From contig JALGVI010000055.1 of assembly GCA_029838215.1 (NCBI GenBank), positions 1 through 24,969 on the forward strand: a stretch of DNA of 24,969 bases, written 5' to 3'. The notes beneath the pieces are model-generated. The model was not told the origin of the DNA. It ran no database searches and saw nothing but the letters and a program-made list of their open reading frames with translations. This stretch comes from Candidatus Helarchaeota archaeon. GTDB lineage: Archaea > Asgardarchaeota > Lokiarchaeia > Helarchaeales > RDOG01. Shown here piece after piece: positions 3,946 through 24,969 of the stretch (position 1 is its first letter; the number at the start of each line of letters is the position of its first letter). Position numbers and translations under genes: made by a program.

Positions 3946-4689
3946 ATGGTAATTTGGGATAAATCCGATGAAATTGTTGATAAAATCAATGGTCTTTATG
4001 TTGTTTTTATCATCATAGGACTTTCCTGCTTGAATCTTATTCCTATCTTTTACTATATTGGGATTTTTAGTCCGAGTAATGCAGTTCTTCCGTTAATCGC
4101 TTTAATTTGCGGAGTCATTTCTGCACTCTTATACCAATGGTTCGTGGTTCCAAAGATCGAGAATAATGAAATGAATGAGATGATGCCATATATTTGGTTC
4201 ATCATTTGCGTCGTGCTTGCATGGATGGGTATCATGAGCGGCTTTTTCGGCATGTGGACCGGAATTCTCCTGACAATTTTATTTGTTTTCAAGGGGATTT
4301 TAGGCGAACAAGTTATTTGGGAAGCTTTTGGTGGCGGTGGTGAAGGAAAAATCAAACCGAAGAAAAAGCCCGAACCAAAGAAGAAAGAAGCCCCTAAAAT
4401 AAGACCGAAACCCGAGCCCGAGCCTGAGCCTGAACCCGAGCCTGAGCCTGAACCCGAGCCTGAGCCTGAACCCGAGCCTGAGCCTGAGCCTGAACCCGAG
4501 CCTGAGCCTGAGCCTGAACCCGAGCCTGAGCCTGAACCCGAGCCCGAGCCTGAGCCCGAGCCCGAACCGAAACCCAAGAAACCTGCAAAAAAAGCGAAAA
4601 AGAAGAAGAAAACAACCAAGAAGAAAAAGAAAACAACCAAAAAGAAGAAGAAAGCAAAAAAATCAAGCAAAAAGCCTAAAAAAACATGA
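3946..4689 (+). CDS. Hypothetical membrane protein: ~4 TM helices, (Pro-Glu)26 repeat and Lys-rich C-terminal tail
   Basis: ATG preceded by GGTGTTGA and a TATA-like CTATATAAG near 3884-3892. Four hydrophobic segments, then a GGGGEG hinge, the PE repeat and the KKKKKTT tail. A T-rich tract follows the stop. Confidence 0.85.
4411..4566 (+). repeat. Coding hexamer tandem repeat, 26 x CC(C/T)GA(G/A), encoding (PE)26
   Basis: Counted directly. Includes higher-order 18-bp (CCTGAGCCTGAACCCGAG) and 24-bp units. Confidence 0.97.
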
Positions 4690-10332: not shown

Positions 10333-12271
10333 AGAAAATGTTCGCATCGGAATTTTTCTATGTCAGTGAGGCAAGAACATCGCAGAAGTTTTAGAAATGA
10401 AAGAACTGGTCAACTTTGCAAAGCAATTTCCAGATGTTGTCGTCGTGGAAGAATCAGTATCATTATGTACTGAATCAGGAGCGGCACAAATTGCAGAAAA
10501 TATTAAAAAGCACGACTTGAATCGAATCATCGTTGCCGCCTGCACGCCAATAACTCACCGAAAAGTCTTTGAGACCATCGTAAAGGAGCACGGCCTAAAT
10601 CCCGGGTATCTCGATTTTATCAATCTCAGAGAACAAGATACTTACGTCCATCGTGATGATCGAGTAAATGCACTCCAACAGGCCAAAGATCTTCTTCGAG
10701 CAAATATTGCACGTTCAAGATTACTTGAAGAAATACCTGTCCGACTTGTCAGGCTTACACCAGAAGCCCTGGTTGTTGGCGGTGGTGTTGCGGGAATTCG
10801 GACGGCTTTAGACCTCGGTTATCATGGATTCAGCACGTATATCGTGGAAAAGTTTCCGTCTATTGGAGGCAATTCCGCAAAATTGGATCGAATATTTCCC
10901 ACGGACGATTGTTGTATCTGAATATTAGGCCCACTCATGCTAAAAGTGGAACGAAACCCTCACATATCTCTGGTGTACGGGGAAATTGAAGACATCGATG
11001 GATATATCGGAAACTTCAAGGTAAAAGTCAAGAAAAAACCGCGGTACATTCGATCTGAACGCTGTAATGCCTGTGGTTCTTGTGCAGAAGTCTGTCCTGT
11101 CATGGTTCCAAATGAATTTAATTGTGGTTTGGATGCACGGAAAGCAATTTACATCCCATTCACGCAAGCAGTTCCTGCTACCTACACGATTGATAAAGAC
11201 CATTGCATAGAATGCCAATTGTGCGTAAAAGCCTGTGACCAAGATGCCATTGACCTCACGCAACAACCGGAAAATCTCGATCTAACCGTTGGGATCATTG
11301 TCGTGGCTACGGGCTTTGAACCATTCAACCCAATCGGGGTATATGGCTATGGACGATACGAGAATGTCATCACGCAACTTGAATTGGAACGAATACTTGC
11401 TCCCAACGGACCCACCGAAGGCAAGCTTAGGAGAATCACGGGTGACAAGGTTCCAAAACGCATTCTAATGATTCAATGCGTTGGTTCAAGGTCTCCAAAA
11501 ACACACGACTATTGTAGTTCTGGAATTTGTTGCATGGTTGCAATAAAAAACGCGCGTCTACTGAAACAACACGATCCTGAAGCGGAAATTACAATTGCTT
11601 ACATCGACATTCGGGCATCTGGAAAACGATATGAAGAATACTATAAAGAAGCACGAGAAATGGGCATCAAGTTCCTGCGCGGGAACGTATCTAAAGTAAA
11701 GGAAGACCCAAAAACAAAGAACATAACTGCACGAATTGAAGACACGCTCAACAATTCCGTGAGAAATCACGAATTTGATCTGGTGGTACTCTCCGTGGGG
11801 ATGGAACCCGCGAAAGAAACAAGTCGAATGGCACGGATGCTGGGAATTGACACGAGCACGGACGGATACTTCAAAGAACTCCATCCTCGCTTGTATCCAA
11901 TCACGACAAAAGTCCCTGGTGTATTTCTGGCGGGTGCTTGTCAAGGTCCACGATCTGTCGATCAAACCGTTGCAACGGGGAAAGGAGCTGCATCTGCTTC
12001 CGCAATCCTAATGTCACACGGTGTCTACGAAATGGAACTGATAAAGGCAGAAATTGATCTCGCAAAGTGCAGCAGGTGTGGACTATGCGTGGAAGTCTGT
12101 CCGTACCACGCGATCTCAATCAAGCACGGTCGAACAATCGTGAATGAAATTACCTGTCGAGGTTGTGGGGCATGTGAAACCGTGTGCAAGAACGATGCCA
12201 TCGAACTTCGCTACTATAGGAACAGGCAGCTGGTGACTTATATCGAAAATTTGGTTCAAAAAGCACGATAA
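10325..12271 (+). CDS. hdrA: Heterodisulfide reductase subunit A, selenoprotein with two in-frame UGA (Sec15, Sec199), 648 aa
   Basis: ATG 10325 follows GGAGGTGGTGAG. The sequence reads MTEENVRIGIFLCQ-UGA(10367-10369)-GKNI (canonical C-x-C-G-x-N-I) and FPTDDCCI-UGA(10919-10921)-ILGP (canonical D-C-x-x-C-I-L-x-P). The pieces at 10397-10921 and 10937-12271 are in this same frame and end at TAA. The length matches a standard HdrA, and a SECIS-like hairpin follows the stop. Confidence 0.93.
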
Positions 12272-12452: not shown

Positions 12453-12785
12453 CTAATGAAACTTAATTCCGGTTCGAATGGCTTCGCGGATGATACTTAT
12501 TTCGTTCCTTCTTCGTTGAAATTCAGTATTAGTCAAACAAATCGGTTCAAGAGAGATTCTATCTTCTGTCCAGTATTGAATGATATTAATGATCCTATCT
12601 CGAAATGATAATTGGTCGAACTTGTCTGATACTACGAGTAAATCCACATCGCTTGACCTAAGATGAGTTTTAGTTGCTCTCGAACCAAATAAATATATTT
12701 GAACTTTGCTATCGAAGCACGTTTTCAATTTTTGACAGAATTTTTTTATGGTCTTATTTACTTCTCGATCATCGATGTGACCCAT
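12453..12785 (-). CDS. Minimal nucleotidyltransferase (MNT) domain protein, antitoxin-type
   Basis: IYLFGSRA...SDVDLLVVSD is the Pol-beta GS/DxD motif. 110 aa, overlapping the HEPN gene by 28 bp. Confidence 0.9.
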   Translation of the reverse strand: MGHIDDREVNKTIKKFCQKLKTCFDSKVQIYLFGSRATKTHLRSSDVDLLVVSDKFDQLSFRDRIINIIQYWTEDRISLEPICLTNTEFQRRRNEISIIREAIRTGIKFH

Positions 12786-13141
12786 TTTATTATTCTTTCT
12801 CCTTTATTCAAAATACGAACGGCAATCTCTTCATCATATAATTCGGCAGGTATCCCATTTGCGGCATCGGGATATCTTGTTGTCATGTAATCGGGAGTTA
12901 ATTCTCTCAGAAAAGAGTAAAAATCTTCAGGTAATTCAATTTCCCTCCCTAATTCCAAAAGGTTGTGAGTTTTTAATGGTAAATCATTTTTACTATGAAT
13001 AAACAGGGCTTTTAGAGATTTTTCAACTGCTTGATGGAGAAAATATACGCTCGCGTAATAATTCTCCAACCCTATGTTATCTCTTGCTGTCTTGAGATCT
13101 GCTTTTGCCTGGTACCACCATCTCCGTGTTTCTTCCCGCAT
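12758..13141 (-). CDS. HEPN domain protein (HEPN-MNT toxin-antitoxin-type pair)
   Basis: W..QAKADLKTA...F.LHQAVEKSLKA...KTHNL..L...Y..TRYPD is typical of archaeal HEPN proteins paired with MNT. Confidence 0.9.
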   Translation of the reverse strand: MREETRRWWYQAKADLKTARDNIGLENYYASVYFLHQAVEKSLKALFIHSKNDLPLKTHNLLELGREIELPEDFYSFLRELTPDYMTTRYPDAANGIPAELYDEEIAVRILNKGERIIKWVTSMIEK

Positions 13142-13181
13142 TAATGCTCACGAATTATCTAGTTTCATCATTCATTAAAAT

Positions 13182-13190
13182 TTTATATAA
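13182..13190 (-). promoter_or_regulatory. TATA box candidate for the HEPN-MNT operon
   Basis: TTATATAAA on the minus strand ~40 nt upstream of the HEPN ATG. Confidence 0.5.
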
Positions 13191-13220
13191 CATCCTAAAT
13201 AAATCCATCCTAAATAAATC
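13191..13220. repeat. Perfect 15-bp tandem duplication CATCCTAAATAAATC x2
   Basis: Read directly; it abuts the HEPN TATA candidate. Confidence 0.95.
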
Positions 13221-13508
13221 CCGTATTTTAAATTTTCTATTTGTTTTTCCAGAAAGACCGCTTGAACTGACGTGAGATTCCTTTGATGAGATTTATTTCT
13301 CGAGTTAGATGATGTTGTTCAGAATATTTTCTAACAAATCGGTTATAAAAAGATTCACGATGATGAGAGATTTTTTAAATCATGTATGAAGAGAATTCGT
13401 TATTCGTTAATATTTACTTTAAGAATTTTAAAGAAATCAACATATTTATCTTCAATTTTCACGGATTTTTAAAGATGTTCAATTCATGTTATCAATGGAG
13501 GATTAAAA

Positions 13509-14675
13509 ATGGTCGAATTTATTCAAGTCAAAGGCAATCATCGTGAAATGGGTGTTCAGCAAGCCGAAAATTTCAAGATCAAAGAAATAATCGCAGAAGT
13601 GATGAAATCAGACATAATGCAGGATGTTAAACCGAAGTTTGTCCCGATATTCCTCGTCAAGTTTGCGTTAGGGTTGATGGGACGCATGAACATTAAAAAA
13701 GCCGTTCAGAAATACGTTCCAAATCAACACGAAAAATTGATAGGAATTGCAGAGGGTGCAGGAATCAGCAAGAATCTCACGTACGGACTCCATTATATCG
13801 AGGTCTATACAGGTGATCCCAAAACAACGGCTTACATATCGCCCGGATGCACGCAATTATTTGCGTTACCTCCTGCTACTGCAGACGGTTCACTTCTCTT
13901 TGGTCGAAACTATGATTTTCCCAAAGCATTACAACCATATCAAATGGTAAGGCTCGATGAACCGGATGATAAATTGAAATGCCTGACCATCTCACAATAT
14001 CCACTTGCAGGAGCGCACATGGGAATTAATGAGAAAGGACTAGCCATTGGCATTAATTATGCTCGAACGTGGGAGAAATATCCCGACGATTTTTCATTTA
14101 AAGGAGTCCCTCCCACGCTAATCGTTCAGGAAGTGCTTGAAAACTTCGAAACTACTGAAGAAGCAATTAAATACATAAGCAATTTTCCGGCGCGTTCGAA
14201 TGCCCAACATTATGGAATCATGGATGAATCTGGAGATGCTTGCGTCCTCGAAACGACTCACACGGATTTTGCCATTAGACGACCAAAGGATGGCATCATG
14301 GCACACAGCAACACGTTTCGCACGGAAAAATTCTTCGATCATAATTGCCCTGACGATCACCATTGGAAAATCAAGAAAATGAGACACATCTCCTACATCA
14401 AATCTCCAAAGATGCGATATGAGCGAGCTCATGAACTTCTGGTCAAGCACAAAGGAGACATCACGATGGAGACCTTTAAAGAAATTTTGGGCGACCATCA
14501 GTACCCGAGCTCTCATCCTGAAAAAAATAACGGAGAACCAGACGATTTTACGGTGTGCACTCATGGCGAAACGGGGATCACTCTGGCGTCCATAATCATC
14601 AGACCGAAAACACGTCAAATGTTCGTCACAGACAGGCAACCGTGCCACTCCATGTATGAAGAATTCAAATTCTAA
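13509..14675 (+). CDS. Ntn-hydrolase, peptidase C45 / acid-ceramidase-NAAA-like amidase
   Basis: RBS GGAGG. Autoproteolysis site G113-C114 (PG|CTQLFA), followed by LLFGRNYDF, GINEKGL and HSNTF. Confidence 0.85.
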   Translation: MVEFIQVKGNHREMGVQQAENFKIKEIIAEVMKSDIMQDVKPKFVPIFLVKFALGLMGRMNIKKAVQKYVPNQHEKLIGIAEGAGISKNLTYGLHYIEVYTGDPKTTAYISPGCTQLFALPPATADGSLLFGRNYDFPKALQPYQMVRLDEPDDKLKCLTISQYPLAGAHMGINEKGLAIGINYARTWEKYPDDFSFKGVPPTLIVQEVLENFETTEEAIKYISNFPARSNAQHYGIMDESGDACVLETTHTDFAIRRPKDGIMAHSNTFRTEKFFDHNCPDDHHWKIKKMRHISYIKSPKMRYERAHELLVKHKGDITMETFKEILGDHQYPSSHPEKNNGEPDDFTVCTHGETGITLASIIIRPKTRQMFVTDRQPCHSMYEEFKF

Positions 14676-14685
14676 CTGAATCAAA

Positions 14686-16020
14686 ATGACAAGACAGAAA
14701 GTCATTCTCCCGAAGAAAGGAAAGCCCGAAGAAGAATTGTTTGATGAGATGGAAAAAGCACGAAAAAACGATTTGAAGTGGAGAGAAGCGCGGAACTGGA
14801 GCTTGGTTTATACGGGTGGTCCCAAGCACGATGAGATCATCAAGAAAGCGTACACGATGTTCTTCTCGGAAAATGCATTGAGTGGAATGGCATTTCCAAG
14901 CCTGAAGAAATTTGAAATTGAAGTCGTTGCAATGACTGCCGACCTGCTGGGTGGCGATCGAAGGGTCGTAGGAACATTGACGTCCGGTGGAACTGAAAGC
15001 ATTCTCATGGCAATGAAAACCTATCGCGATTGGGCACGCGAAAAGCACCCCGAAATAAAAAAGCCCGAAATCATCTTGCCAATGACAATTCATCCTTCTT
15101 TCGGAAAAGGCGCGCATTACTTTGACATTAAACCCGTGTACACTCCCATTGATCCCGAAACACTCCAAGCGGACGTGAACGCAATTCTTGATGCTGTTAA
15201 CGAAAAAACCATCGCAATTGCAGGCTCTGCGGTCTGTTATCCATACGGAGTCGTGGATCCCATTCCTGAAATGGCTGCTATCGCCGAAGAACGCGGGATC
15301 GGATGTCACGTAGATGCTTGCCTGGGCGGGTTTTTCTTACCATTCATTCGCAAATTGGGATATCCCGTTCCCGAATTTGATTTCAAGATTCGAGGAGTCA
15401 CTTCAATTTCGGCTGACGTGCATAAATATGGTTATGGTGCAAAAGGTGCGAGTGTCATTCTTTATAGAAAAGAAAAGTGGCGCTTATACCAATATCACGC
15501 TTATTGCGATTGGGTTGGCGGACTTTATGCGTCTCCAGCAATGTTAGGCACGCGTCCGGGTGGTGCCGTGGCGGCTGCATGGGCTGCCATGATGTCCCTC
15601 GGAGAAGAAGGATACTTGGAACGAGCAAAAATCATAATGGAGACTGCTGAAAAAATAATCAACGGGATTAACTCCATTCCTGAATTAATCGTCAAGGGAA
15701 AGCCCACGATGGGCGTGCTTGCATTCGAATCCGAAAAAATTAACATTTACTCGGTCGGAGACGAAATGGAGAAGCTCGGATGGCACTTGGATTATCTTCA
15801 AAAACCGCCTTGCTTGCATCTGATAATAAATCCACATCATGTTCCTGTTGCAGACAAATTCATTGAAGACCTACAAAGAGCCGTGATGAGAGTTCGAGAA
15901 AAACCAACCGAAACAATTGAAGGAACGGGTGCCATGTACGGTATGATGGCAAAGATCCCCGATAGAGAATCCGTCCACGATTTCGTTGTCAAGTTTCTCA
16001 GCGATTTCTACAAATTATGA
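14686..16020 (+). CDS. PLP-dependent group II enzyme, sphingosine-1-phosphate lyase-like
   Basis: TSGGTESIL, HVDACLGG, SADVHKYGY (PLP Lys247), YASP..LGTRPG and an N-terminal W...R.W.LVY...N.L..FP. These resemble SPL more than MfnA/GAD. The gene starts 10 bp after the amidase. Confidence 0.8.
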   Translation: MTRQKVILPKKGKPEEELFDEMEKARKNDLKWREARNWSLVYTGGPKHDEIIKKAYTMFFSENALSGMAFPSLKKFEIEVVAMTADLLGGDRRVVGTLTSGGTESILMAMKTYRDWAREKHPEIKKPEIILPMTIHPSFGKGAHYFDIKPVYTPIDPETLQADVNAILDAVNEKTIAIAGSAVCYPYGVVDPIPEMAAIAEERGIGCHVDACLGGFFLPFIRKLGYPVPEFDFKIRGVTSISADVHKYGYGAKGASVILYRKEKWRLYQYHAYCDWVGGLYASPAMLGTRPGGAVAAAWAAMMSLGEEGYLERAKIIMETAEKIINGINSIPELIVKGKPTMGVLAFESEKINIYSVGDEMEKLGWHLDYLQKPPCLHLIINPHHVPVADKFIEDLQRAVMRVREKPTETIEGTGAMYGMMAKIPDRESVHDFVVKFLSDFYKL

Positions 16021-16055
16021 ATTTTCCAATTGGAGAAAAAGTAATGAAGAAGACT
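15994..16055 (+). repeat. Direct repeat copy 1 (3' end of SPL-like gene + 3' UTR)
   Basis: Matches 17008-17068 at 54 of 62 aligned columns by manual alignment. Confidence 0.9.
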
Positions 16056-16116
16056 TGATGTAGATTTTTACTTGTGAATTCGGAATTCCAAGCACTAAAA
16101 TTTAATTTTAATGCCG

Positions 16117-16139
16117 TTTAGAGAAATCTTTAGAGAATC
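16117..16139. repeat. Near-perfect tandem duplication TTTAGAGAAATC / TTTAGAGAATC
   Basis: Read directly in the intergenic region. Confidence 0.75.
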
Positions 16140-16159
16140 AATATTTTTTTTAAAAAGAA

Positions 16160-16885
16160 TTACTTCATGCAGATGATCTTTCTCCTTCCTAAAAGGTATA
16201 GATCAAAAATATCCAATACATTTCTTCCGATCATTCCTTGAAATGGAAGAATTTTTGAAATCGGTGTTGAAATACATCCTACTTGCAATACTTGCCCGAA
16301 GATTTCCAAATTGAGTTTAAAGACCGATTTTTTTTCAATTCCAGAAACCGTTTGAACTGTTTTCTCATCGATTTCTTCTAATTTAAATTCATCAAAAATA
16401 TCAGATCTAAGCAAACATACTGATGCAGCAGTATCGGGAATAACAGCAATGGTCTTTTTAATATCTTTTTTCACGAGTTTAACAGGAATAATGGGATACG
16501 TGTTGGCATCCACTCTGTGGTAATCCCAACAATTCAATTCAACCGAATTTGCTGAAAAAGCATATTCCAGTTTTGGTATCTTTTTATTTTTGCGTTTAAT
16601 TACTATTCCCTTAAAAGGAAATTTACCTATGAGATCTTCCATCAAAGATGACGGTGAATCTGCCACGCCTATTATTGCACCCTTAATCACTGCATAGTAT
16701 TTTCCATCAGGAACCCAGTCAGGAGCTTCTACTTCTTCAGCCTGACTTTTCAATTCTTCAATTTTTAATTTCTCACTTATCGCTTTTCTTACAAACTGAC
16801 TAATCGTATTGTATTCACGATCAGATAATATTTTTTTAATGCGCTCTTTTTCCTTCATTGGTATCTTTATGTTCAATAATGGCAT
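16160..16885 (-). CDS. Ribbon-helix-helix + DUF5678-like + retropepsin-like (clan AA) aspartyl protease fusion
   Basis: N-terminal LNIKIP...TISQFVRKAISEKL (RHH). Middle GKYYAVIKGAIIG.AD (DUF5678-like). C-terminal YPIIPV...PDTAASV...GMIGRNVL (retropepsin-like, DTAA instead of DTGA). Confidence 0.7.
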   Translation of the reverse strand: MPLLNIKIPMKEKERIKKILSDREYNTISQFVRKAISEKLKIEELKSQAEEVEAPDWVPDGKYYAVIKGAIIGVADSPSSLMEDLIGKFPFKGIVIKRKNKKIPKLEYAFSANSVELNCWDYHRVDANTYPIIPVKLVKKDIKKTIAVIPDTAASVCLLRSDIFDEFKLEEIDEKTVQTVSGIEKKSVFKLNLEIFGQVLQVGCISTPISKILPFQGMIGRNVLDIFDLYLLGRRKIICMK

Positions 16886-17007
16886 TTCACATCACGATCA
16901 GTGTAGATAAATTGTATATAAAAAACGTATTCTAGTGAGATATTTTTTCAAAAGTCTTAAAACCTTTATTTTTCTAGCTTGCTATTCATTTTCATCGAAT
17001 TATTGAA

Positions 17008-17068
17008 TTTCTCGGTGATTTCTACAAATCATGATTTTCCATTTGAAGAAAAAGTAGTGAAAAAGACT
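17008..17068 (+). repeat. Direct repeat copy 2 (degenerate duplicate of SPL-like 3' end)
   Basis: Translates as ...IIEFLGDFYKS*, compared with SPL ...VVKFLSDFYKL*. Confidence 0.9.
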
Positions 17069-17083
17069 CTGAAGTCTTCTTTT
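17063..17083. terminator. Small hairpin AAGACT-CTGA-AGTCTT followed by CTTTT, at the stop of 17082-18254
   Basis: Perfect 6-bp inverted repeat read directly; function is inferred. Confidence 0.35.
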
Positions 17084-18254
17084 AGTCGCGAAATACCGTA
17101 TTTTCGCCCATTCCTTGACTTATGATGCGTTTTGGTGAGATGTCGGCTTCTAATCCATCGTGGTGCGTGATGTCTAAAAGAATGCCATTTAATGCTTCAT
17201 CTACGGAATCGATCCCGAGATCTTCCAGCATGATCCGCGTGTGTTTCGGATATTTCCATTCCCATCGTTCGTCAAATTCCACGTTTTCAAAAAATTTCTT
17301 ATCTTTCGTGTTAGTGGTTTTGCATTCCATCGTGGCAGCAGGTAGCGGGATGCCCTTGGCAAACTGTTCGATATATCCTATTCTCCAGAGTTCGGGAAAG
17401 TCGTTCTTTAGCCATTCGCGAGCATTTTCGTGCAGCGTGGTAATGAACAATTGGAGATCGGAAAAAAGTCCTGCACCGCGCAAGCAATATTTTGGTCTGG
17501 GCATGCCAAACATGGTCCTTAAGAGCGGTGGCCAAGGCGTGAAGCCTGCCAAGAATTCCTTCAGACCATATTTCTCTTTTGCATTCACGGCATCCCAAAA
17601 CAACGCGTGATTTTCCCAACAAGACGTTTCGAACGTGATGTTCACGGCTGTAGTGATCCAAGATATGCTACCTAAATAAGGGGATGTTCCCCACTGAGGT
17701 GTTCTTTCATTCCTAACGTCCTCCAGAGCTTCGATCACGCGAATGCCCGCTTTCTTGAATGTTTTTTCCTTTTTGGGAATGTCCTTTATCTTCACGCCTG
17801 ATTTCATATGGCGCCGTTCCATGACATCGTCATTCTGTCCCACGATCCACCAATCAACGGGAATTCCATCTTCTAGATGGGCATTGAAAATGAACAGCAT
17901 TTCTTTTTTGAAATCGTCCACGAGTTGAAATGAGCAGTCTAAACTATCTCCATACAGGAGCTTCATGGTACCTTGCATCAGGTCCGTCCGTGTCGGGACA
18001 ATGGGCGGATGTAACATGAAACACATGGTTTTATCTGGTTGCGGCAACGCCCCATCGATGACTTTCTTGCTAACCAAGATGGCTTCGTCTAACCGAACTT
18101 TTAACAGGTCGTAAATTAGATCGGTAAGCGTCTTGACGGAGTGTTCGTAAAATTCCCATCCCAACTCTTTAAATACGGGCCAAATATGGTTATACAACGG
18201 CATTGCAAGTTTTGTTTCCACGTCATCGGGGAGTTCTGAAAAATTGTGCGGCAT
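17082..18254 (-). CDS. Hypothetical protein (390 aa, soluble, Trp/Pro-rich)
   Basis: Long ORF with natural composition; no family recognised. Confidence 0.8.
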   Translation of the reverse strand: MPHNFSELPDDVETKLAMPLYNHIWPVFKELGWEFYEHSVKTLTDLIYDLLKVRLDEAILVSKKVIDGALPQPDKTMCFMLHPPIVPTRTDLMQGTMKLLYGDSLDCSFQLVDDFKKEMLFIFNAHLEDGIPVDWWIVGQNDDVMERRHMKSGVKIKDIPKKEKTFKKAGIRVIEALEDVRNERTPQWGTSPYLGSISWITTAVNITFETSCWENHALFWDAVNAKEKYGLKEFLAGFTPWPPLLRTMFGMPRPKYCLRGAGLFSDLQLFITTLHENAREWLKNDFPELWRIGYIEQFAKGIPLPAATMECKTTNTKDKKFFENVEFDERWEWKYPKHTRIMLEDLGIDSVDEALNGILLDITHHDGLEADISPKRIISQGMGENTVFRD

Positions 18255-18409
18255 TTGGTCGTCCTCAATGATTCTCTTTCGATGAATTAATTTATTAAAA
18301 TTTTTTATACTTCTTGTTGAGAAGAATTAAAATCTTTATTACATTCGGTGTTTAGCAATTTTCGATCGATCGAGTTCTTATTAAATTTGTAATTTTATTA
18401 TTCTATTGA

Positions 18410-18425
18410 ATTAAAAGCTTTGAAA
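18410..18425 (+). repeat. 16-bp direct repeat copy 1, ATTAAAAGCTTTGAAA (near-palindromic)
   Basis: Identical to 19678-19693. Confidence 0.8.
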
Positions 18426-18446
18426 ATTCTATGTAAGGAGAAGGAC

Positions 18447-19490
18447 ATGTTCATTAAAAATCTTGATATTTCAGAATTCAGGGGAATAAAAAAAAGTAAA
18501 AAACCAATCGAACTTTCTCACTTCACAGTTTTAATTGGAAAAAACAATTCTGGCAAATCCTCGATATTAGAAGCATTATCTTTGCTACCTGCCCCTCAAG
18601 TCAACGACTATTTTACGAAAACTAAAAAGATTGAAGCAGTTCAAAAACTTCATAGATCAAATGTAATGGATTATAAATCATTAATCTATTTGTATGCAGG
18701 CTCAGCTTCTCTTAAATACGAATTCAAGCACATTATATCGGACAAATCCAATCTTATTGGGGATTTTGAATATCAAATCTCATTTAAAATCATGGAAAAG
18801 GAAATAAAAATTTGGATTTATAACGAAGAAGTTAGCAAGCGGACTGATGAAGCATTAAAAGAATATTTCAAAATTGGGGAGCAAAAACCCAAGAAATCAT
18901 GGCAATTAACTCCAACATTATCGAGTCTTGTTTTATTCATTCCGAACAATACTTCGATTTTGAGATCATTAGAAGAAAACATGGAAACTCTAAAGGACTC
19001 AATAATGAAAAGTGGTTTTCATGCTAAAATAGCAAAAGACCTAAACGAATGTATCGATGATGAGTATAGTGAAATAGTCTTTTTGACACCGATTTCCATC
19101 AGAAAAGTTTTTCCAAATAGTTCAAACTACATAAAATTAGGCGATCTCGGATCTGGAGCTGAAAGAGCCATTAAAATAATCGCTTTAACCGAAGCCATCA
19201 ATCCAAGACTTCTTTTAATAGATGATTTTGGGGCTGGACTTCATCCTTCTCTGATAAAAATGATGATGAATTGGATGAAAGAAAAAAAATGGCAAACGAT
19301 CATATCAACTCACAGCATTGATGTTTTATACATGTTAGCGGACTTGAAACCAGAAAAAACGACTATCTTGCAGTTAAAGAAATCAAATGAAGATATCTTA
19401 GATTATGTAACCCTAACAATAGACGATTTAGAAGATATACTTGATGCCAATAACGATCCTCGTTTACTAGTTAAAACATTTGATTTATAG
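18447..19490 (+). CDS. ABC-type / AAA_15-21-like ATPase (OLD/AbiEii-like, putative defence or TA)
   Basis: I..FRGIK, Walker A GKNNSGKS, signature LGSG, Walker B LLLIDD...GLHP, H-loop STHS. RBS AAGGAG at 18435-18440 favours ATG 18447. Confidence 0.85.
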   Translation: MFIKNLDISEFRGIKKSKKPIELSHFTVLIGKNNSGKSSILEALSLLPAPQVNDYFTKTKKIEAVQKLHRSNVMDYKSLIYLYAGSASLKYEFKHIISDKSNLIGDFEYQISFKIMEKEIKIWIYNEEVSKRTDEALKEYFKIGEQKPKKSWQLTPTLSSLVLFIPNNTSILRSLEENMETLKDSIMKSGFHAKIAKDLNECIDDEYSEIVFLTPISIRKVFPNSSNYIKLGDLGSGAERAIKIIALTEAINPRLLLIDDFGAGLHPSLIKMMMNWMKEKKWQTIISTHSIDVLYMLADLKPEKTTILQLKKSNEDILDYVTLTIDDLEDILDANNDPRLLVKTFDL

Positions 19491-19516
19491 CTAATTTTAA
19501 GGTTAAGGGGAGAAAT

Positions 19517-19717
19517 TTGAGATTAATAGATGATCCTAAAAATCAAACTCCGTCATATCATGTCATTTCTGGAGACGGTAGAAGCGATATCCGTGTACTT
19601 AGAGGTTTTTGTGACAAGTATAATGGATATGATATAACTTTATATTTTCCAAAGCATCCCGTTGGAAAACAAACTGGATTAAAAGCTTTGAAAGTATATA
19701 AAGAAATGGATATATAA
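19517..19717 (+). pseudogene. Short, probably truncated partner of the ATPase (TOPRIM/DUF3226-like N-terminus)
   Basis: 66 aa with YHVISGDGRSD.RVL, resembling the acidic first-strand motif of ATPase-associated TOPRIM-like proteins. It ends just after the second 16-bp repeat. Family call is from recall only. Confidence 0.45.
19678..19693 (+). repeat. 16-bp direct repeat copy 2, ATTAAAAGCTTTGAAA
   Basis: Identical to 18410-18425; followed immediately by TATATAAA (19695-19702). Confidence 0.8.
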
Positions 19718-19725
19718 TAGTCAAG

Positions 19726-20889
19726 ATGAAAATAAAATCATCACTTTCCGTGAGGGAAGCGGCTGTTAGGCTTGCAGCCGAAAGTTCTATTGGAACTTGG
19801 ACGGATATATCTACGATGAAGCCAGAGATCAGGAAGTTGGCAGCCAAAATCTTCGAAATAAAAGAAGACGTTATAAAAGTAGCATATCCGTTGGATATCT
19901 TTGAGCCCAGCATTCCTCAAATCCTTGCGGATGTCGCAGGTAATATTTTCGGCATGCTTGATGTTGATGAATTACGGATTGAGGATATTATCATTCCAAG
20001 TAAATTTCTCAAACAATTCAGAGGTCCCTCGCACGGGATTGATGGCGTCCGGAATATGATGCAGATCAAGGATAGACCACTGGTAGGGACCATCATTAAA
20101 CCTAAAATTGGGCTTCCTTATAAAGACCATGCCAGAGTTGCATTCGAAGCATGGATTGGAGGGATTGACTTTGTTAAAGATGATGAAAACCTCACGAATC
20201 AATCATTTAATCCCTTTAAAGAACGCGTCATCGAGACTTTACAGGCGCTTGACAGGGTTGAGACTAAAACAGGTGAAAAGAAAAATTATGCAGCAAACAT
20301 ATCTGCTCCATATAATGAAATGCTAGAACGGGCTGATATTCTCAAAGATCATGATGGAAAGTGTGCGATGATCGATGTCATAACTTGTGGATTTTCAGCA
20401 GTTCAAAGTTTCATCACGGAAGAACGTTTTAACTTCATTCTTCACGGACATCGTGCAATGCATGCTGCCATGACGCGAAATCCTAATCACGGAATTCACA
20501 TGAGCATGTTGGCTTTACTATCTCGCATGTGTGGTATGGACCAATTTCACGTTGGTGCGGCTTTTGGAAAGATGGAAGGTGATGTTGAGGAAGTTACAAG
20601 GAACATTCACTCTTGCACGTTTGATTGTGGTTTAAAAAAGACATTTCCTGCCTGTTCGGGCGGCTTGCACCCTCGAGTCATCCCTGACATTATTGAAACT
20701 TTCGGAAAGGACATCATCATTCAAGCCGGCGGTGGAGTTCACGGACATCCAAAGGGAACAACTGCTGGTGCAACGGCAATGAGGCAGGCTGTCGATGCCG
20801 TGATGGATGGCGTTTCACTTGAAACTCATGCAAAAACACACGAAGAATTAGCCGGTGCATTACAAAAATGGAAATCTCAATATTCCTAA
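19726..20889 (+). CDS. rbcL: Form III RuBisCO large subunit, short N-terminus
   Basis: AAESSIGTWT, AGNIFG, GTIIKPKIGL, GGIDFVKDDE (carbamylated Lys151), HGHRAMH, GKMEG, SGGLHP and QAGGGVHGHP. The catalytic set looks complete. Confidence 0.95.
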   Translation: MKIKSSLSVREAAVRLAAESSIGTWTDISTMKPEIRKLAAKIFEIKEDVIKVAYPLDIFEPSIPQILADVAGNIFGMLDVDELRIEDIIIPSKFLKQFRGPSHGIDGVRNMMQIKDRPLVGTIIKPKIGLPYKDHARVAFEAWIGGIDFVKDDENLTNQSFNPFKERVIETLQALDRVETKTGEKKNYAANISAPYNEMLERADILKDHDGKCAMIDVITCGFSAVQSFITEERFNFILHGHRAMHAAMTRNPNHGIHMSMLALLSRMCGMDQFHVGAAFGKMEGDVEEVTRNIHSCTFDCGLKKTFPACSGGLHPRVIPDIIETFGKDIIIQAGGGVHGHPKGTTAGATAMRQAVDAVMDGVSLETHAKTHEELAGALQKWKSQYS

Positions 20890-21813
20890 AGACGTTTAAA
20901 TCTGGAGAATCTTCACGTGAAAAAATATTTGGTCTTCGATTTAGGTGCAAGCTCTGGACGTGCAATGCTTGGCATTTTAGATGATAAACTTCTAAAGCTT
21001 CATGAAATTCATCGTTTTTCTAACAAGGGAATTCGAGTTTTTGATTCTCTCTATTGGGATGTCCTGCATCTTTTTGAAGAGATGAAGATCGGGCTTAAAA
21101 AAGCGGCGGAAAAATACGGATCTCGATTTGATGGTATTTCGACCGATTCTTGGGGCGTTGATTTCGTGCTGCTTGATGAAAACGCAAATTCCGTTGGTTT
21201 TGTTCACCATTATCGAGATAATAGAACGAATGGCATGCTCGACAAAATGCTGAAAGTCGTTTCAAAAAAGGAGATTTTTGAACGAACGGGCATTCAATTC
21301 ATGCAACTCAATACATCTTGTCAATTATATTCGATTGTCAAGGCAAAGGCTCCCCAACTTGCCATCACGAAATCATTTTTAATGATTGCCGATTATTTCA
21401 ACTTCCTTCTCTCCGGTCAAAAATGCCAAGAGCGATCACTGGCCAGCACCACACAGCTATACGAGCCCGTGAAAAAAGAATGGGCACGGGATATCATCGA
21501 AAAACTAAAATTAAAATTCGAGTGGTTTCCAAGACTCGTTGATTCAGGAACGATAATCGGTCCCCTTTTTCCAACAGTCGCGGCTGAGACTGGTGTTGAT
21601 GGGGTGTCTCCGGTCATTGCCTCACTCAGTCATGATACTGCTTGTGCTGTTGCAGCGGTCCCCGTTGAGCAAAATATCAAGACTTGGGCTTTCATAAGTT
21701 CAGGCACGTGGAGTCTCATGGGACTCGAATTGAAGCAACCAATTATTAATGATGCGGTTCTCGACTGCAATTTAACGAATGAAAGCGGAGCATTTGGAAC
21801 CACGCGTTTTCTA

Positions 21814-21829
21814 AAGAACATAAGAACAT
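21814..21829. repeat. Perfect 8-bp tandem duplication AAGAACAT x2 (frameshift 1)
   Basis: Read directly. Confidence 0.97.
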
Positions 21830-22201
21830 TATGGGACTTTGGCTCATTCAAGAATGTAAAAATTTGTGGGAAAGGCGAAATGGTAAAAAAATTTCCTTTG
21901 ATGATATCTCGAAATGGGCTGAAAAAGCCGAACCGTTTAAAACTCATGTTGATCCTGATGATATTGCCTTTTTAAATCCTCCAAACATGATTGAAGCATT
22001 ATTAGATCACGTCGAAGCAAGAAATCAAAAACCGCCAACAGAAATGGGCGAAGTTGCTCGCATGATTTTTGAAGGATTGGCATTTCGTTATCGTGAGGTC
22101 CTCGAACAACTCCAGAAGTTTTCTCCTGACAGAATTGAGAAGATTTATATCGTTGGTGGTGGCTCAAAAAACGAGCTCCTCTGTCAGTTCACCGCCAATG
22201 C

Positions 22202-22227
22202 AACCGGGCTTCCTAACCGGGCTTCCT
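22202..22227. repeat. Perfect 13-bp tandem duplication AACCGGGCTTCCT x2 (frameshift 2)
   Basis: Read directly. Confidence 0.97.
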
Positions 22228-22531
22228 GTCGATGCAGGACCTGCTGAAGCCACGGCAATCGGAAACATCTTGATGCAAGCCATTGCCACGAAACAATTAA
22301 AATCTTTTAAAGAAATGAGAAAGATCGTGCGGAATTCATTCGAAATCAAAACATACCTGCCCAAAAACGTCTCTGAATGGGATGAAATGTATGAAACTCA
22401 CACCTAAAAATCGTTAAAGGAAAACTTCATTAATTATTGAGTAAGATACTTTTATTATTATCTATACATATAAACATCCGTCTAGCTATATTTGAAACAT
22501 TCAAAAATGGTCCGGGCTTAAGTAAAATATC

Positions 22532-23137
22532 ATGTTCATTATTTGTTTTGATCTTGAGGGCGTTTTCACGCCAGAGGTATGGATAAACGTTGCAAAAGAA
22601 ACGGAAATCGATGAACTCAAATTGACAACGCGAGATATTTCCGACTATGATGCTCTAATGAAACAACGACTAAAAATTCTGAAAGAACACGGCATTACCT
22701 TGAAAAACATCCAAGATATCATCTCGAAGATGGAACTACTGCCCGGAGCCCGCGAATTTTTAGATTGGATCAGGACCATTACTCAGGTGTTGATTCTTTC
22801 CGATACTTTCATCGAGTTTGGAATGCCATTCATGAAAAAACTGGGTTATCCCACGCTTCTCTGTCACGACCTTGAAGTTGATGAAAAGGGGATGATCTCA
22901 AATTACCGCCTTCGGATTCGGGACATGAAAAGACAGACCGTGATTGCTCTAAAAAAGATGAATTATGACGTGATTGCCATTGGAGATTCCTATAACGATA
23001 CAGGGATGCTATCAGAAGCAAAACACGGAATACTATTTCGTCCGCCTGAGAGCGTGATTAAAGAATTCCCACAATTTCCTGTCGTTACAGGATATTCTGA
23101 CCTGAAAAATCTCATTTCCAAGTATTTGGAAACTTGA
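22532..23137 (+). CDS. thrH: Phosphoserine phosphatase / homoserine phosphotransferase (HAD)
   Basis: DLEGVFTPEVW...TTRDISDYDALMKQRL...ILSDTF...GDSYNDTGML matches ThrH closely. Confidence 0.92.
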   Translation: MFIICFDLEGVFTPEVWINVAKETEIDELKLTTRDISDYDALMKQRLKILKEHGITLKNIQDIISKMELLPGAREFLDWIRTITQVLILSDTFIEFGMPFMKKLGYPTLLCHDLEVDEKGMISNYRLRIRDMKRQTVIALKKMNYDVIAIGDSYNDTGMLSEAKHGILFRPPESVIKEFPQFPVVTGYSDLKNLISKYLET

Positions 23138-23287
23138 ATTCAAATCAAAACGGATTTATTGGATTTTAAATTCGAAATCTTCTTTGCTTGAATTTGCTAC
23201 TTTTGTAGAGAAGTTATAAAAACTTCATGAAGAAATATTATTTCAGAAACTTTTCCATCAATATTTAATTTATATAGGTGAGATATC

Positions 23288-23809
23288 TTGCCGAAACCGT
23301 TGTGGGCTACTTATATTGACCTGTTGAAGTTACCATTAATGGAGTATAAAAAAGTAAAGGGATTAACGATTAGGAATCCAAAAAATGAGTCCGATTTAAA
23401 GATGTTTGTCCAATTGTTTAATGAGATTTGGGCACCAGCGAAACAAGTCCCTGGTATTACGACCACGGAATTGAGCTTAGATGATGCAAAGGCGATTTCT
23501 GCAGAAAAAATCCTGTTGGCGGAATTGGAGGGAAAAATCGTTGGTTTCCTGGTCGTGAATACTGAAGTCGAAAATGGTGAAAAAATCGGCGTCTACACTC
23601 ACCTTGGAGTAAAAAAAGAATATAGGAAAAAAGGAATCGCATCTGCCTTGACTTTCAAGGGTGGTCAGTATCTCGTTGATAAATATGGCATAACGAAAAT
23701 AAAATCAATCATTCATAGAAGTAATAAAGCGGCAATGGATTTCATAAACTTCATTAAATTCTCAAAAACTGTGGAGGTAGATGAGGATTCCAAGTTGCCG
23801 ATCCCGTGA
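23288..23809 (+). CDS. GNAT-family N-acetyltransferase
   Basis: RBS GGTGA before a TTG start. Motifs LAELEGKIVGF and LGVKKEYRKKGIASAL. Confidence 0.85.
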   Translation: MPKPLWATYIDLLKLPLMEYKKVKGLTIRNPKNESDLKMFVQLFNEIWAPAKQVPGITTTELSLDDAKAISAEKILLAELEGKIVGFLVVNTEVENGEKIGVYTHLGVKKEYRKKGIASALTFKGGQYLVDKYGITKIKSIIHRSNKAAMDFINFIKFSKTVEVDEDSKLPIP

Positions 23810-23825
23810 GCCAAGCTATACTCAC

Positions 23826-24191
23826 TCATTTAACGATTTGTCTTCCCAGCAGAGCAAATCCTTTTTCATGACAAAACTCTTCAATTTGTTGATATGAAGC
23901 ATGAACCGCCATGAACTGATCTATGAGTATGAGGAGAGAGCATTCATCAATGAATCGGGCAATCTTATATTTTGCCAGTTGTTTTTCTATCTCGTCCAAA
24001 TCTCCCGAATCTCCGACAAGGTGCAGGTATAATTCATGTTTTTTTCCTTTGACCTGCTCCAGTTCATAGTCATATTCCTTGTTTTTTGGCGTGCCGGGCT
24101 TCTTGCAAGGAGGGTTTTTGAATATGTTTTTAAAATACCCGTACATCCACGCTTCCCCATACGAAAGTAAGTATTTTCGATGTTCAAGCAC
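23826..24191 (-). CDS. Hypothetical protein
   Basis: 121 aa, GTG start preceded by GGTGA on the minus strand. Confidence 0.7.
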   Translation of the reverse strand: MLEHRKYLLSYGEAWMYGYFKNIFKNPPCKKPGTPKNKEYDYELEQVKGKKHELYLHLVGDSGDLDEIEKQLAKYKIARFIDECSLLILIDQFMAVHASYQQIEEFCHEKGFALLGRQIVK

Positions 24192-24248
24192 TCAATCACC
24201 AGGGAACCAGTTTAGGATTTTCTTAGAAACAGAGAATTAAATCATTTA

Positions 24249-24587
24249 TCATTTAGTCTGTGATTTTATAGTGTCTTCAAGTGCCTTTAAGCGTTTCTGA
24301 CACAATTCGTGTTTCAGGCTCTTTAGACTATTTAAATCTCCAAGATCCTTGATCTGGATCTGTTTGGGTGTCATGTGAAATATTTCAAAACCGGGAAGCA
24401 TTTTCAAGATGTCTTTCAATTGCTCGTAAAGTTCCATTGAGAATTCCGAAAATTTCAATTGAAAATCTGTCTTGCCCGCAATGTACAATTCAATCATGAC
24501 CTTTCTGAGTTGTGCAGCGTCTTCTACTGAGAAGCACTCGAGTTCATCCATGTTGTCTTCCCATTCATCTTGCACGCTTTTCATCAT
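24249..24587 (-). CDS. Hypothetical protein
   Basis: 112-aa acidic ORF, co-oriented with 23826-24191. Confidence 0.7.
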   Translation of the reverse strand: MMKSVQDEWEDNMDELECFSVEDAAQLRKVMIELYIAGKTDFQLKFSEFSMELYEQLKDILKMLPGFEIFHMTPKQIQIKDLGDLNSLKSLKHELCQKRLKALEDTIKSQTK

Positions 24588-24934
24588 GATCTAAACCCTT
24601 TTCTCATCAAGCAAAGAGGATAATTAACCTAAACTCGATTAGAACTCATTAGTAATAAGAACCAAAATCAAGAAGGCAAGTGAAACCATTGCTATTTAAA
24701 ACTTAGTATAAAGAATCAAACAGATCAGAAGAAAACAATTTTTTTTATGCTAACCTTTTATATACAAGTAAGCTTTTCAAAATATCTTTCTAAGATTTAC
24801 ACGATCATGATAAAAACAATGATACGAAATCTGTCAAAAATGAATTGGTTCATTAAAAACTGGTTGATCATGTAATTTGTTCTAAATAAATTGATTATTT
24901 TGATCGTTATATATAATTTTATAATGATATTGCC

Positions 24935-24969
24935 ATGGATCGTGATTTCAGAAAATTAAAGATTTTTTC
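24935..24969 (+). CDS. Possible start of a CDS running off the window (MDRDFRKLKIF...)
   Basis: ATG ~20 nt after TTATATAT (24907-24914). Only 11 codons are visible. Confidence 0.25.
   Translation, partial: MDRDFRKLKIF

Follow-up and report, generated by a model that had tools for sequence, protein, structure and literature searches.

A form III RuBisCO gene beside FGGY-family sugar kinase genes in a clade of Helarchaeota, with a possible role in pentulose salvage

The form III RuBisCO of a family-level clade of Helarchaeota has, as the trees show or imply, left its ancestral neighbour, the R15P isomerase gene (e2b2), and entered sugar-kinase contexts. The resulting association with FGGY kinases is real, and it appears to be undescribed: our literature searches on archaeal and Asgard RuBisCO, sugar kinases and the pentose bisphosphate pathway found no paper that describes it. 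Archaeal form III RuBisCO is understood either as the final step of nucleotide and nucleoside salvage (AMP to R15P to RuBP) or as the partner of PRK. On the basis of gene context we infer, with a probability of about 0.4, that the kinase next to RuBisCO feeds RuBP formation, as part of a pentulose-salvage route that would converge on ribulose-1,5-bisphosphate (RuBP).

The window, by which we mean the whole stretch of 24,969 nucleotides analysed here, carries rbcL, an FGGY kinase gene and a thrH-like gene in that order on the forward strand, as read from open reading frames (ORFs) and profile matches. The sequence-only reading had described the same layout, with the kinase 27 bp after rbcL and thrH behind it, all co-oriented, and its statement that the window lacks AMP phosphorylase, R15P isomerase and PRK genes also held, none of the three being found among the window ORFs scanned against Pfam and NCBIfam (most of those of at least 100 aa). 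The features of the locus are as follows.

19705..19706, + strand: point at which 64 bp present in a sibling assembly are missing, so that rbcL lacks its ATG, its first codons and its AGGTG ribosome-binding site (global alignment to sibling L095)
19726..20889, + strand: form III RuBisCO large subunit, a 5'-truncated ORF of 387 aa (intact allele 409 aa) (Pfam and NCBIfam matches, alignments to 6HUN and 2CWX, Helarchaeota clade)
20890..20916, + strand: 27-nt spacer with GGAG at 20904-20907, 9 nt 5' of the kinase GTG (sequence reading)
20917..22407, + strand: RhaB/FucK-like FGGY ketose kinase in three frame pieces (intact allele P0129, 497 aa) (GTG start, profile matches, sibling alignment)
21814..21829, + strand: perfect 8-bp tandem duplication, AAGAACAT twice, a frameshift; the sibling has one copy (sequence reading, sibling alignment)
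22202..22227, + strand: perfect 13-bp tandem duplication, AACCGGGCTTCCT twice, a frameshift; the sibling has one copy (sequence reading, sibling alignment)
22399..22400, + strand: 2-bp CA insertion, with the last kinase residues altered and the C-terminus 8 aa shorter (sibling alignment)
22408..22531, + strand: AT-rich spacer of 124 nt that contains T-runs and separates the kinase gene from the thrH-like gene (sequence reading)
22532..23137, + strand: homologue of ThrH-family HAD-IB phosphoserine phosphatase/phosphotransferase, 201 aa, intact and identical in siblings (profile matches, sibling alignment)

Judged by its domains and motifs, the window RuBisCO is a genuine form III enzyme, with predicted carboxylase activity. 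Both the N-terminal and the catalytic large-subunit domains are present (PF02788, 1.4e-27; PF00016, 8e-82), and the motifs ESSIGTWT, GNIFGM, KPKIGL, KDDEN, HGHRAMHAA, FHVGA, GKMEG, SGGLHP and AGGGV align with the same motifs in 6HUN and 2CWX; they cover the catalytic and RuBP-binding residues, which in spinach numbering are E60, T65, N123, K175, K177, K201, D203, E204, H294, R295, H327, K334, S379-G381 and G403-G404. Against the form III model TIGR03326 the window protein scores 493.9 bits and its intact sibling 497.3 (cut-off 497.45), and against the subfamily model NF003252 they score 465 and 468, above the cut-off of 438. The spacer to the kinase gene is 27 nt in sibling L095 and 25 nt in the relative L075, and RuBisCO and kinase are probably co-transcribed.

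Evidence for the association comes from the RuBisCO neighbourhoods of relatives. An FGGY kinase adjoins RuBisCO in eight of the nine loci of the Helarchaeota clade, in three arrangements, and e2b2 does so in none; by comparison, e2b2 lies beside RuBisCO in 22 of 28 order- and class-level relatives, and in all 28 no FGGY, GH172 or ThrH gene lies closer to RuBisCO than 1.5 kb. The RuBisCO tree recovers the FGGY-linked clade as monophyletic (SH-aLRT 99), in a position nested within lineages linked to e2b2. Six loci (G001, L077, L078, L079, L081 and L082) share a tight series of GH172, RuBisCO and a type B (XylB-like) FGGY kinase, with RuBisCO and kinase genes overlapping by 13 nt in G001 and L077, and with a vertically inherited type A (RhaB-like) kinase lying convergently just past type B in L078, L081 and L082. 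In the window species and L075 a type A kinase instead stands directly 3' of RuBisCO, a pairing known only from one lineage of two species-level taxa; the L075 proteins are 79% (RuBisCO) and 63% (kinase) identical to those of the window. The sequence-only reading had counted an adjacency unique to this genome as evidence against it, and the pair is in fact intact in three sibling assemblies as well as in L075. Its expectation that the adjacency would anticorrelate with e2b2, prk and deoA stood in part: the clade counts and the lack of PRK agree with it, but AMP-phosphorylase-like and e2b2 genes lie elsewhere in the same genome.

What the kinase does is harder to read. Its architecture is FGGY_N plus FGGY_C, with PF00370 and PF02782 matching across the three frame pieces and over the full length of P0129. 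The best models are those of rhamnulokinase (TIGR02627 and NF007925), yet the intact protein falls under every equivalog cut-off (TIGR02627, 455.9 against 527.95; NF007925, 399.7 against 639; E. coli-type FucK, 125 against 470.9). The closest solved structures are FucK of S. pneumoniae (4C23, 306 bits) and RhaB of E. coli (2CGJ, 293 bits), and the kinase contains HDT within SHDTACA, which we take to be the substrate-contact motif of RhaB. In the kinase tree the window and L075 proteins group with the g9 kinases (95/92), apart from the vertical Helarchaeales copies, and the trees thus show or imply that the kinase of the window subclade is RhaB/FucK-like, xenologous and of Lokiarchaeia-type ancestry. 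Its nearest homologues (64-71% identity in G032, G026, G010, P0122 and P0124; 60% in P0130) all adjoin a class II FucA/Ru1P-type aldolase, often together with MFS transporter, ADH or AFOR genes. Neither the window nor L075 has a class II aldolase or sugar isomerase beside the kinase, and no orthologue of the partner aldolase occurs in the window genome, where the best match has 34% identity and a non-sugar context. The kinase has moved without its aldolase.

Because its close homologues stand beside class II aldolases, the kinase may serve a classical ketose-1-phosphate route rather than a PRK-like role. It would then phosphorylate L-fuculose, L-rhamnulose or D-ribulose at C1 for a class II aldolase that yields DHAP and lactaldehyde or glycolaldehyde, RuBisCO would receive its substrate in the usual way, through AMP phosphorylase and R15P isomerase from other loci, and the adjacency would reflect a shared scavenging island, co-regulation or the chance landing of a transferred gene. 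We consider this quite possible. The model and structure matches speak for it, as does the aldolase beside each close homologue outside the window and L075 lineage; so do the single class II aldolase, the AMP-phosphorylase-like gene and the R15P-isomerase-like gene of the genome, and glycoside-hydrolase candidates in the window and near the L075 pair. It leaves unexplained, however, why RuBisCO of this clade lost its e2b2 neighbour and came to be flanked by FGGY genes in eight of nine loci, through three arrangements, two non-orthologous kinase types and, in G001 and L077, overlapping genes; nor does it account for the missing orthologous aldolase partner or for a spacing of 25-27 nt kept despite the divergence of the kinases (63% identity).

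The metabolic setting bears on both readings. A search of the genome, which is 94% complete, gave no PF00485 match and hence no PRK; since the kinase is an FGGY protein, it could share a role with PRK only by analogy and not by homology. The genome encodes HPS(-PHI) and RpiA, both Ru5P-making. It also has an AMP-phosphorylase-like gene, which scores 522-524 bits (cut-off 535) and whose product in this family lacks about 80 N-terminal residues and stays under the equivalog cut-off. A further gene is the orthologue of the e2b2 that relatives carry beside RuBisCO. With these two genes a canonical feed exists, and RuBP supply needs no new route. Two parts of the operons of other Helarchaeota were not found in the window genome, namely an orthologue of the type B kinase (best match 30%) and an orthologue of the operon-type GH172 (a paralogue only, 36-39%), so that a two-kinase scheme is incomplete there. 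GH172 enzymes release D-arabinofuranose or D-fructofuranose (PMC8605356, PMC10115798). Glycoside-hydrolase candidates, GxGYxYP and cellulase-like, occur in the window, and others near the L075 pair.

Under our preferred reading, in which the kinase feeds RuBP formation, a C1-kinase of this type together with a C5-kinase, XylB-like or another pentulokinase, would convert D-ribulose or Ru5P to RuBP, which RuBisCO would turn into two 3-PGA, and an organism that lacks PRK could break down free pentoses in addition to using the AMP/R15P route. The sequence-only reading had cast the kinase as a possible PRK analogue supplying Ru1P or RuBP; the adjacency beyond this genome, the lack of PRK and the Ru5P-making enzymes favour that claim, whereas the canonical feed genes and the aldolase-paired homologues weigh against it, as does the point that, to our knowledge, no FGGY kinase phosphorylates a sugar phosphate. 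A bolder version would have the FGGY kinases of Helarchaeota replace PRK altogether, as C5- and/or C1-kinases that take free D-ribulose (for example from D-arabinofuranosides released by GH172) or Ru5P to RuBP, with RuBisCO as a C5-splitting step independent of both nucleotides and PRK. We regard this as distinctly doubtful.

The thrH-like gene is a separate, unlinked neighbour of the RuBisCO-kinase unit. Its product is well matched over residues 1-199 of 201 (NF010109, 305.4 bits, cut-off 133; TIGR02137, 287.7 bits, cut-off 223.4). Of 40 relatives, 10 have an orthologue, never on the contig of RuBisCO or kinase, and in L075 the gene that follows the kinase is NMO/FabK-like, not thrH; any serine drain thus lies outside a conserved unit. 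The earlier scheme joined all three genes into one pathway, the kinase making RuBP, RuBisCO making 3-PGA and the ThrH-like enzyme draining it to serine. Co-orientation, the same arrangement in sibling assemblies and the textbook position of 3-PGA as precursor of phosphoserine recommend it, but the linkage proved to be species-specific, the 124-nt spacer is probably a transcript boundary, the thrH-like gene is free of the lesions found in the other two genes, and the window has neither SerA nor SerC. Non-conservation has already largely refuted the serine scheme, and we think it very improbable.

The lesions themselves concern the window allele. Three sibling assemblies from this Helarchaeota species have the locus intact (three contigs), with a RuBisCO of 409 aa and a kinase of 497 aa, so the intact kinase that the sequence-only reading had wanted sought in relatives exists in siblings. 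Over 5.3 kb of global alignment the window and L095 differ by no substitution and by four indels, all in rbcL and the kinase gene, and the thrH and GNAT genes are unchanged. The truncated rbcL ORF begins at Met23 of the intact protein and is identical to residues 23-409 of sibling allele P0244, which has the native start absent from the window. This damage had gone unnoticed in the earlier reading, which had called the kinase broken and 489 aa long once repaired: its two breaks are indeed the tandem duplications, and removing one copy of each gives a 489-aa frame, but it missed the third lesion, the CA insertion, and the intact length is 497 aa. A reading of the stretch upstream of the rbcL ATG as a decayed N-terminus, with a stop in frame and five codons deleted, was withdrawn, as the sibling shows a clean 64-bp deletion, at which a short microhomology is possible (the left flank and the deleted segment both end in GAA). 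Nor is the unit decaying in the species as a whole, given the intact genes on three sibling contigs.

In the window, then, the RuBisCO-kinase unit is either non-functional or mis-assembled. An origin of the four indels in assembly or consensus error, with an intact pair in the organism, would touch only the damaged-allele part of our account, and we think it rather unlikely. No substitutions against four indels in 5.3 kb is odd for natural divergence, the 6.7 kb upstream showing the opposite (12 substitutions, no indels), and the assembly is a MAG of 170 contigs with 6.2% contamination. On the other hand, replication slippage classically yields changes such as the 64-bp deletion and the perfect tandem duplications of 8 and 13 bp, which are atypical of short-read assembly error. 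All four indels fall within two adjacent genes that make up about 22% of the 12 kb compared, which would happen at random with a chance of about 0.003. Such duplications are also rare, with 129 units of 8-20 nt in a scan of the 3.6-Mb genome and only two of 13 nt, a rarity that does not decide whether the indels are real.

Set against known systems, the locus shares some features with each and differs in others. The pentose bisphosphate (AMP) pathway of Thermococcales comprises AMP phosphorylase, R15P isomerase (e2b2) and form III RuBisCO (PMC9700705; PMC12628685). The window genome resembles it in a form III RuBisCO with all catalytic motifs and in its AMP-phosphorylase-like and R15P-isomerase-like genes, but in this clade RuBisCO never stands beside e2b2 and is found with FGGY kinases, with or without GH172. 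FucK/FucA and RhaB/RhaD are modules of a ketose-1-kinase and a class II aldolase for the catabolism of L-fucose, L-rhamnose and D-arabinose in E. coli. The FGGY kinase is most similar to these, and in Lokiarchaeia-type genomes its nearest homologues form divergent pairs with a class II aldolase gene; by contrast, in the window and L075 an upstream RuBisCO takes the place of the aldolase, no sugar isomerase is nearby and the rhamnulokinase score stays under its cut-off (455.9 < 527.95). PRK-RuBisCO pairs serve the Calvin cycle and the reductive hexulose-phosphate pathway of methanogens. As there, a kinase adjoins RuBisCO, Ru5P could be made via HPS-PHI and RpiA, and the proposed C1 phosphorylation of a 2-ketopentose would be PRK chemistry, but the kinase has the actin-like FGGY fold, not the P-loop fold of PRK, and we know of no FGGY enzyme active on Ru5P. 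The non-carboxylating pentose bisphosphate pathway of haloarchaea uses a HAD-type RuBP 5-phosphatase and a FucA-type Ru1P aldolase, with neither RuBisCO nor an FGGY kinase (PMC9700705). There too the enzyme families that cluster around ribulose phosphates include a HAD hydrolase and a class II aldolase, with RuBP/Ru1P chemistry, and in Helarchaeota a HAD-IA hydrolase is the partner of the vertical type A kinases; however, HAD matches to the RuBP phosphatase model reach about 50 bits against a cut-off of 330, and the HAD protein of the window is of the ThrH-type HAD-IB class. The GH172-RuBisCO-XylB-like operons of other Helarchaeota have a RuBisCO of the same clade (63-66% identity), an FGGY gene immediately downstream and often an adjacent RhaB-like type A kinase, whereas the window-subclade locus lacks GH172 and the XylB-like kinase and has a xenologous RhaB/FucK-like kinase instead.

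For the biology of these archaea, the finding means that in a whole Asgard family RuBisCO has been uncoupled from R15P isomerase and shares operons with genes for sugar kinases and a glycosidase. The window may represent a natural experiment, in which one strain lost RuBisCO and kinase together, with their neighbours untouched. Were the link only positional, this would be an ordinary fuculose- or rhamnulose-type kinase beside an ordinary salvage RuBisCO. If, as we tentatively propose, the kinases make RuBP, they would provide a third, undescribed entry to RuBP and a new reaction class for FGGY kinases. Asgard archaea have few pentose-phosphate-pathway genes (PMC6478937), and such an entry would explain how archaea so poor in these genes burn pentoses.

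In the Helarchaeota clade to which the window's RuBisCO belongs, the canonical pairing of RuBisCO with a gene of the e2b2 family, which includes R15P isomerase, has been lost, and linkage to FGGY kinases has been conserved. In the window itself the relevant genes are:

19726-20889: RuBisCO large-subunit ORF with both domains, 387 aa, best model form III
20917 (GTG start) to 22407: FGGY kinase, best models rhamnulokinase, with two frame changes
beyond a 124-nt AT-rich spacer with T-runs: ThrH-family HAD-IB protein, 201 aa, 305 bits (cut-off 133)

The RuBisCO is genuine, scoring 493.9 bits on TIGR03326 (cut-off 497.45) and 465 on NF003252 (cut-off 438). All catalytic motifs are present in HMMER alignments to the solved form III enzymes 6HUN and 2CWX, and because this set is complete (ESSIGTWT, GNIFGM, KPKIGL, KDDEN, HGHRAMHAA, FHVGA, GKMEG, SGGLHP, AGGGV) the protein is, judged by its motifs, of the carboxylase type and not a RuBisCO-like protein; the second homologue of the genome, on contig C131 (35% identity), is a form IV RLP. 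A 27-nt spacer separates RuBisCO from the kinase, with GGAG 9 nt ahead of the kinase GTG, and the two genes form a probable bicistron. ORFs and models thus bear out the gene order described in the sequence-only reading (RuBisCO, 27 nt, rhamnulokinase-family kinase, thrH). Its statement that the window holds no AMP phosphorylase, R15P isomerase or phosphoribulokinase (PRK) also stands for the ORFs scanned against Pfam and NCBIfam, which comprised most of those of at least 100 aa.

Across 40 GTDB relatives, the orthologous RuBisCO and RhaB-like kinase genes lie far apart or on separate contigs. Flanks within 1.5 kb of RuBisCO were surveyed in 28 order- and class-level relatives (L038-L065), and in 22 of them the immediate neighbour of RuBisCO, co-directional or convergent, is an R15P-isomerase-like gene of the e2b2 family; these genes are about 50% identical to the window genome's own copy on contig C15, whose best model is R15P isomerase. 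FGGY, GH172 and ThrH genes were found within that distance in none of the 28. The Helarchaeota clade comprises nine distinct loci with 63-79% RuBisCO identity to the window (L079 and L080 being one entry), and here the rbcL-FGGY adjacency that the sequence-only reading had picked out for comparison with other genomes does recur: an FGGY kinase adjoins RuBisCO in eight loci, L076 being the only one without, and e2b2 does so in none. In the RuBisCO tree the nine loci are monophyletic (SH-aLRT 99), with e2b2-linked lineages around them, and split into a GH172-bearing group and a group of the window species, L075 and L076. Because kin are not independent, we counted events instead of genomes: RuBisCO left the e2b2 context at least once, and three different kinase arrangements followed.

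Two kinase types are involved. Type B, XylB-like, stands directly behind RuBisCO in six loci as part of a tightly packed GH172, form III RuBisCO and kinase series: in the relative genome G001 (L066 8821-12438), L077, L078, L079/L080, L081 and L082, with RuBisCO and kinase overlapping by 13 nt in G001 and L077. Its identity to the window kinase is only about 21%, and it scores best, below cut-off, on xylulokinase and ribulokinase models. A second, RhaB-like FGGY gene lies convergently just beyond the series in L078, L081 and L082; in L078 a gene for a Macro-domain protein closely precedes GH172. Type A, RhaB/FucK-like, is the window's type: its intact allele scores 455.9 bits on the rhamnulokinase model (cut-off 527.95) and is about equally similar to Streptococcus pneumoniae FucK (4C23, 306 bits) and E. 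coli RhaB (2CGJ, 293 bits). L075, whose RuBisCO is 79% identical, carries an intact 493-aa orthologue (63%) after a 25-nt gap. In a tree of type A kinases, those of the window and L075 cluster with kinases from three genus-g9 genomes of Lokiarchaeia type (support 95/92) within a clade of sequences from other orders (95/97), and the vertical-looking Helarchaeales copies of G001, L078 and L082 (100/100) branch apart. Given this grouping in the one tree, the window kinase looks horizontally acquired. Each of its closest homologues adjoins a class II aldolase of the FucA/Ru1P-aldolase type, the pairing of the classical route by ketose-1-kinase and aldolase; frequent further neighbours are MFS sugar transporters, Zn-ADHs and aldehyde:ferredoxin oxidoreductases. 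In the vertical copies of type A from Helarchaeales, the partner is a HAD-IA hydrolase instead.

How such a kinase might serve RuBisCO follows from the positions of the phosphates of ribulose-1,5-bisphosphate (RuBP), at C1 and C5. RhaB/FucK-type kinases phosphorylate 2-ketoses at C1 and XylB/ribulokinase-type enzymes at C5, and in E. coli the fucose enzymes catabolise D-arabinose via D-ribulose. GH172 glycosidases liberate D-arabinofuranose or D-fructofuranose (PMC8605356, PMC10115798). A pentose or pentulose would accordingly be converted to RuBP by the kinase or kinases, and RuBisCO would turn RuBP into two molecules of 3-PGA. We give this route a probability of roughly 0.4. The functional evidence throughout is gene context. 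The route would fit every gene of the clade's clusters, and likewise the lack of PRK and the report that Helarchaeota have few pentose-phosphate-pathway genes (PMC6478937). On the other hand, the type B kinase is absent from the window genome and the nearest relatives of the window kinase are aldolase-linked, both of which count against the route. So does a third point: we know of no FGGY enzyme that acts on a sugar phosphate.

The main rival, which we regard as possible if doubtful, keeps the kinase in its classical role with an aldolase and has RuBisCO fed by the AMP/R15P route. The window genome, of which the window is one whole contig, is a MAG of 3.62 Mb in 170 contigs (94.3% complete, 6.2% contaminated) in which PRK was not found. 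It encodes a single class II aldolase, whose gene surroundings are not sugar-related, an HPS(-PHI) gene, RpiA and three e2b2 paralogues, among them MtnA on contig C1 and the R15P-isomerase candidate on C15. An AMP-phosphorylase-like gene lies at C120:786-2036 (522-524 bits, cut-off 535). Like that of G001 (C11:375225-376469), it lacks the first ~80 residues, matching the model from about 81-84 onward; the two genomes' proteins score 504-524 against 535, compared with about 600 bits for the full-length versions of sister families, and they may be an N-terminally short variant with altered function. Of the anticorrelation with prk, deoA and e2b2 that had been envisaged, the part that concerns the AMP route therefore holds only at the level of loci, where e2b2 is missing from all nine, and not at that of genomes, since candidates for both AMP-route enzymes are present. 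The suggested drain of 3-PGA to serine through ThrH finds no such footing: orthologues occur in 10 of the 40 relatives, always away from RuBisCO and kinase, L075 has an NMO/FabK-like gene at the corresponding position, and thrH is free of the damage described below. We consider it an unrelated neighbour.

The window allele is damaged, at four sites:

19705/19706: 64-bp deletion relative to the sibling alignment
21814-21829: perfect 8-bp tandem duplication in the kinase, AAGAACAT, changing the frame
22202-22227: perfect 13-bp tandem duplication in the kinase, AACCGGGCTTCCT, changing the frame
22399-22400: CA insertion relative to the sibling alignment

The kinase had been called broken, with an intact version to be sought in relatives, and both points held: besides the two frame-changing duplications, a homology search with a relative's intact kinase recovered a 497-aa protein (P0129), 100% identical to the window's first kinase frame piece, that is encoded by three contigs, 42-107 kb long, of sibling assemblies (e.g., GCA_054384155.1). 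Gene order there matches window 12981-24969, with the same ThrH-like gene and a 409-aa RuBisCO (P0244), annotated by NCBI as Candidatus Helarchaeota archaeon. Without its three insertions the window kinase equals P0129 exactly, and the window RuBisCO is identical to residues 23-409 of P0244. With the 64 bp, rbcL has lost its AGGTG ribosome-binding site, its ATG and its initial codons, and with these roughly half of the first conserved beta-strand segment (GYIIVKMKIK); any 387-aa product that is still made is probably impaired. In DNA alignments with the sibling locus L095, window 12981-19706 shows 12 substitutions and no gaps, and 19580-24969 no substitutions and exactly four indels, a contrast that points to either a recombination boundary or a composite assembly close to the 5' end of rbcL. 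An assembly artefact, in keeping with the indel-only spectrum, seems to us the less likely cause of the lesions. All four lesions are confined to the adjacent RuBisCO and kinase genes, with none in thrH, GNAT or beyond, and perfect tandem duplications of this kind are rare: the 3.6-Mb assembly has 129 whose unit is 8-20 nt long, only two of them with 13-nt units. We consider it likelier that both genes were truly inactivated, very recently and at strain level.

Two copies of a 19-nt direct repeat (18/19 identical; 18407-18425 and 19675-19693; TGAATTAAAAGCTTTGAAA and TGGATTAAAAGCTTTGAAA) flank the gene of an AbiLi/AriA/OLD-like ABC ATPase (18420-19490) and the greater part of a 66-aa ORF just ahead of rbcL; the segment has the look of an inserted cassette of defence type, and the sibling assembly carries it too. 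Profile scans also yielded cellulase-like and GxGYxYP glycosidase candidates. The latter, a 997-aa putative glycoside hydrolase (824-3817), recurs in L075 (4266-7259) two genes from the RuBisCO-kinase pair, which hints at a common glycan-use neighbourhood. Other genes of the window encode a choloylglycine-hydrolase-like protein, a PLP decarboxylase, GNAT acetyltransferases and, on the minus strand (12453-13141), a toxin-antitoxin-like pair in which HEPN (127 aa) overlaps a minimal nucleotidyltransferase (110 aa). The window also holds an Hdr/Mvh-type redox cluster. Two same-frame ORFs for an HdrA-like flavoprotein/ferredoxin (10397-12271) are divided solely by an in-frame TGA (10919-10921), possibly a selenocysteine codon and not the mark of a split gene. 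Tandem repeats of 18 nt (4417-4520) encode a repetitive Pro/Glu-rich stretch of a 247-aa ORF (3946-4689).

The description of Helarchaeota mentions RuBisCO only as type III and type IV genes (PMC6478937), and our literature search found no description of RuBisCO-FGGY or RuBisCO-GH172 linkage. To this linkage the window adds a second arrangement, with a type A kinase directly behind RuBisCO, along with a locus-level switch away from e2b2 and an allele in which the two genes were possibly inactivated together.
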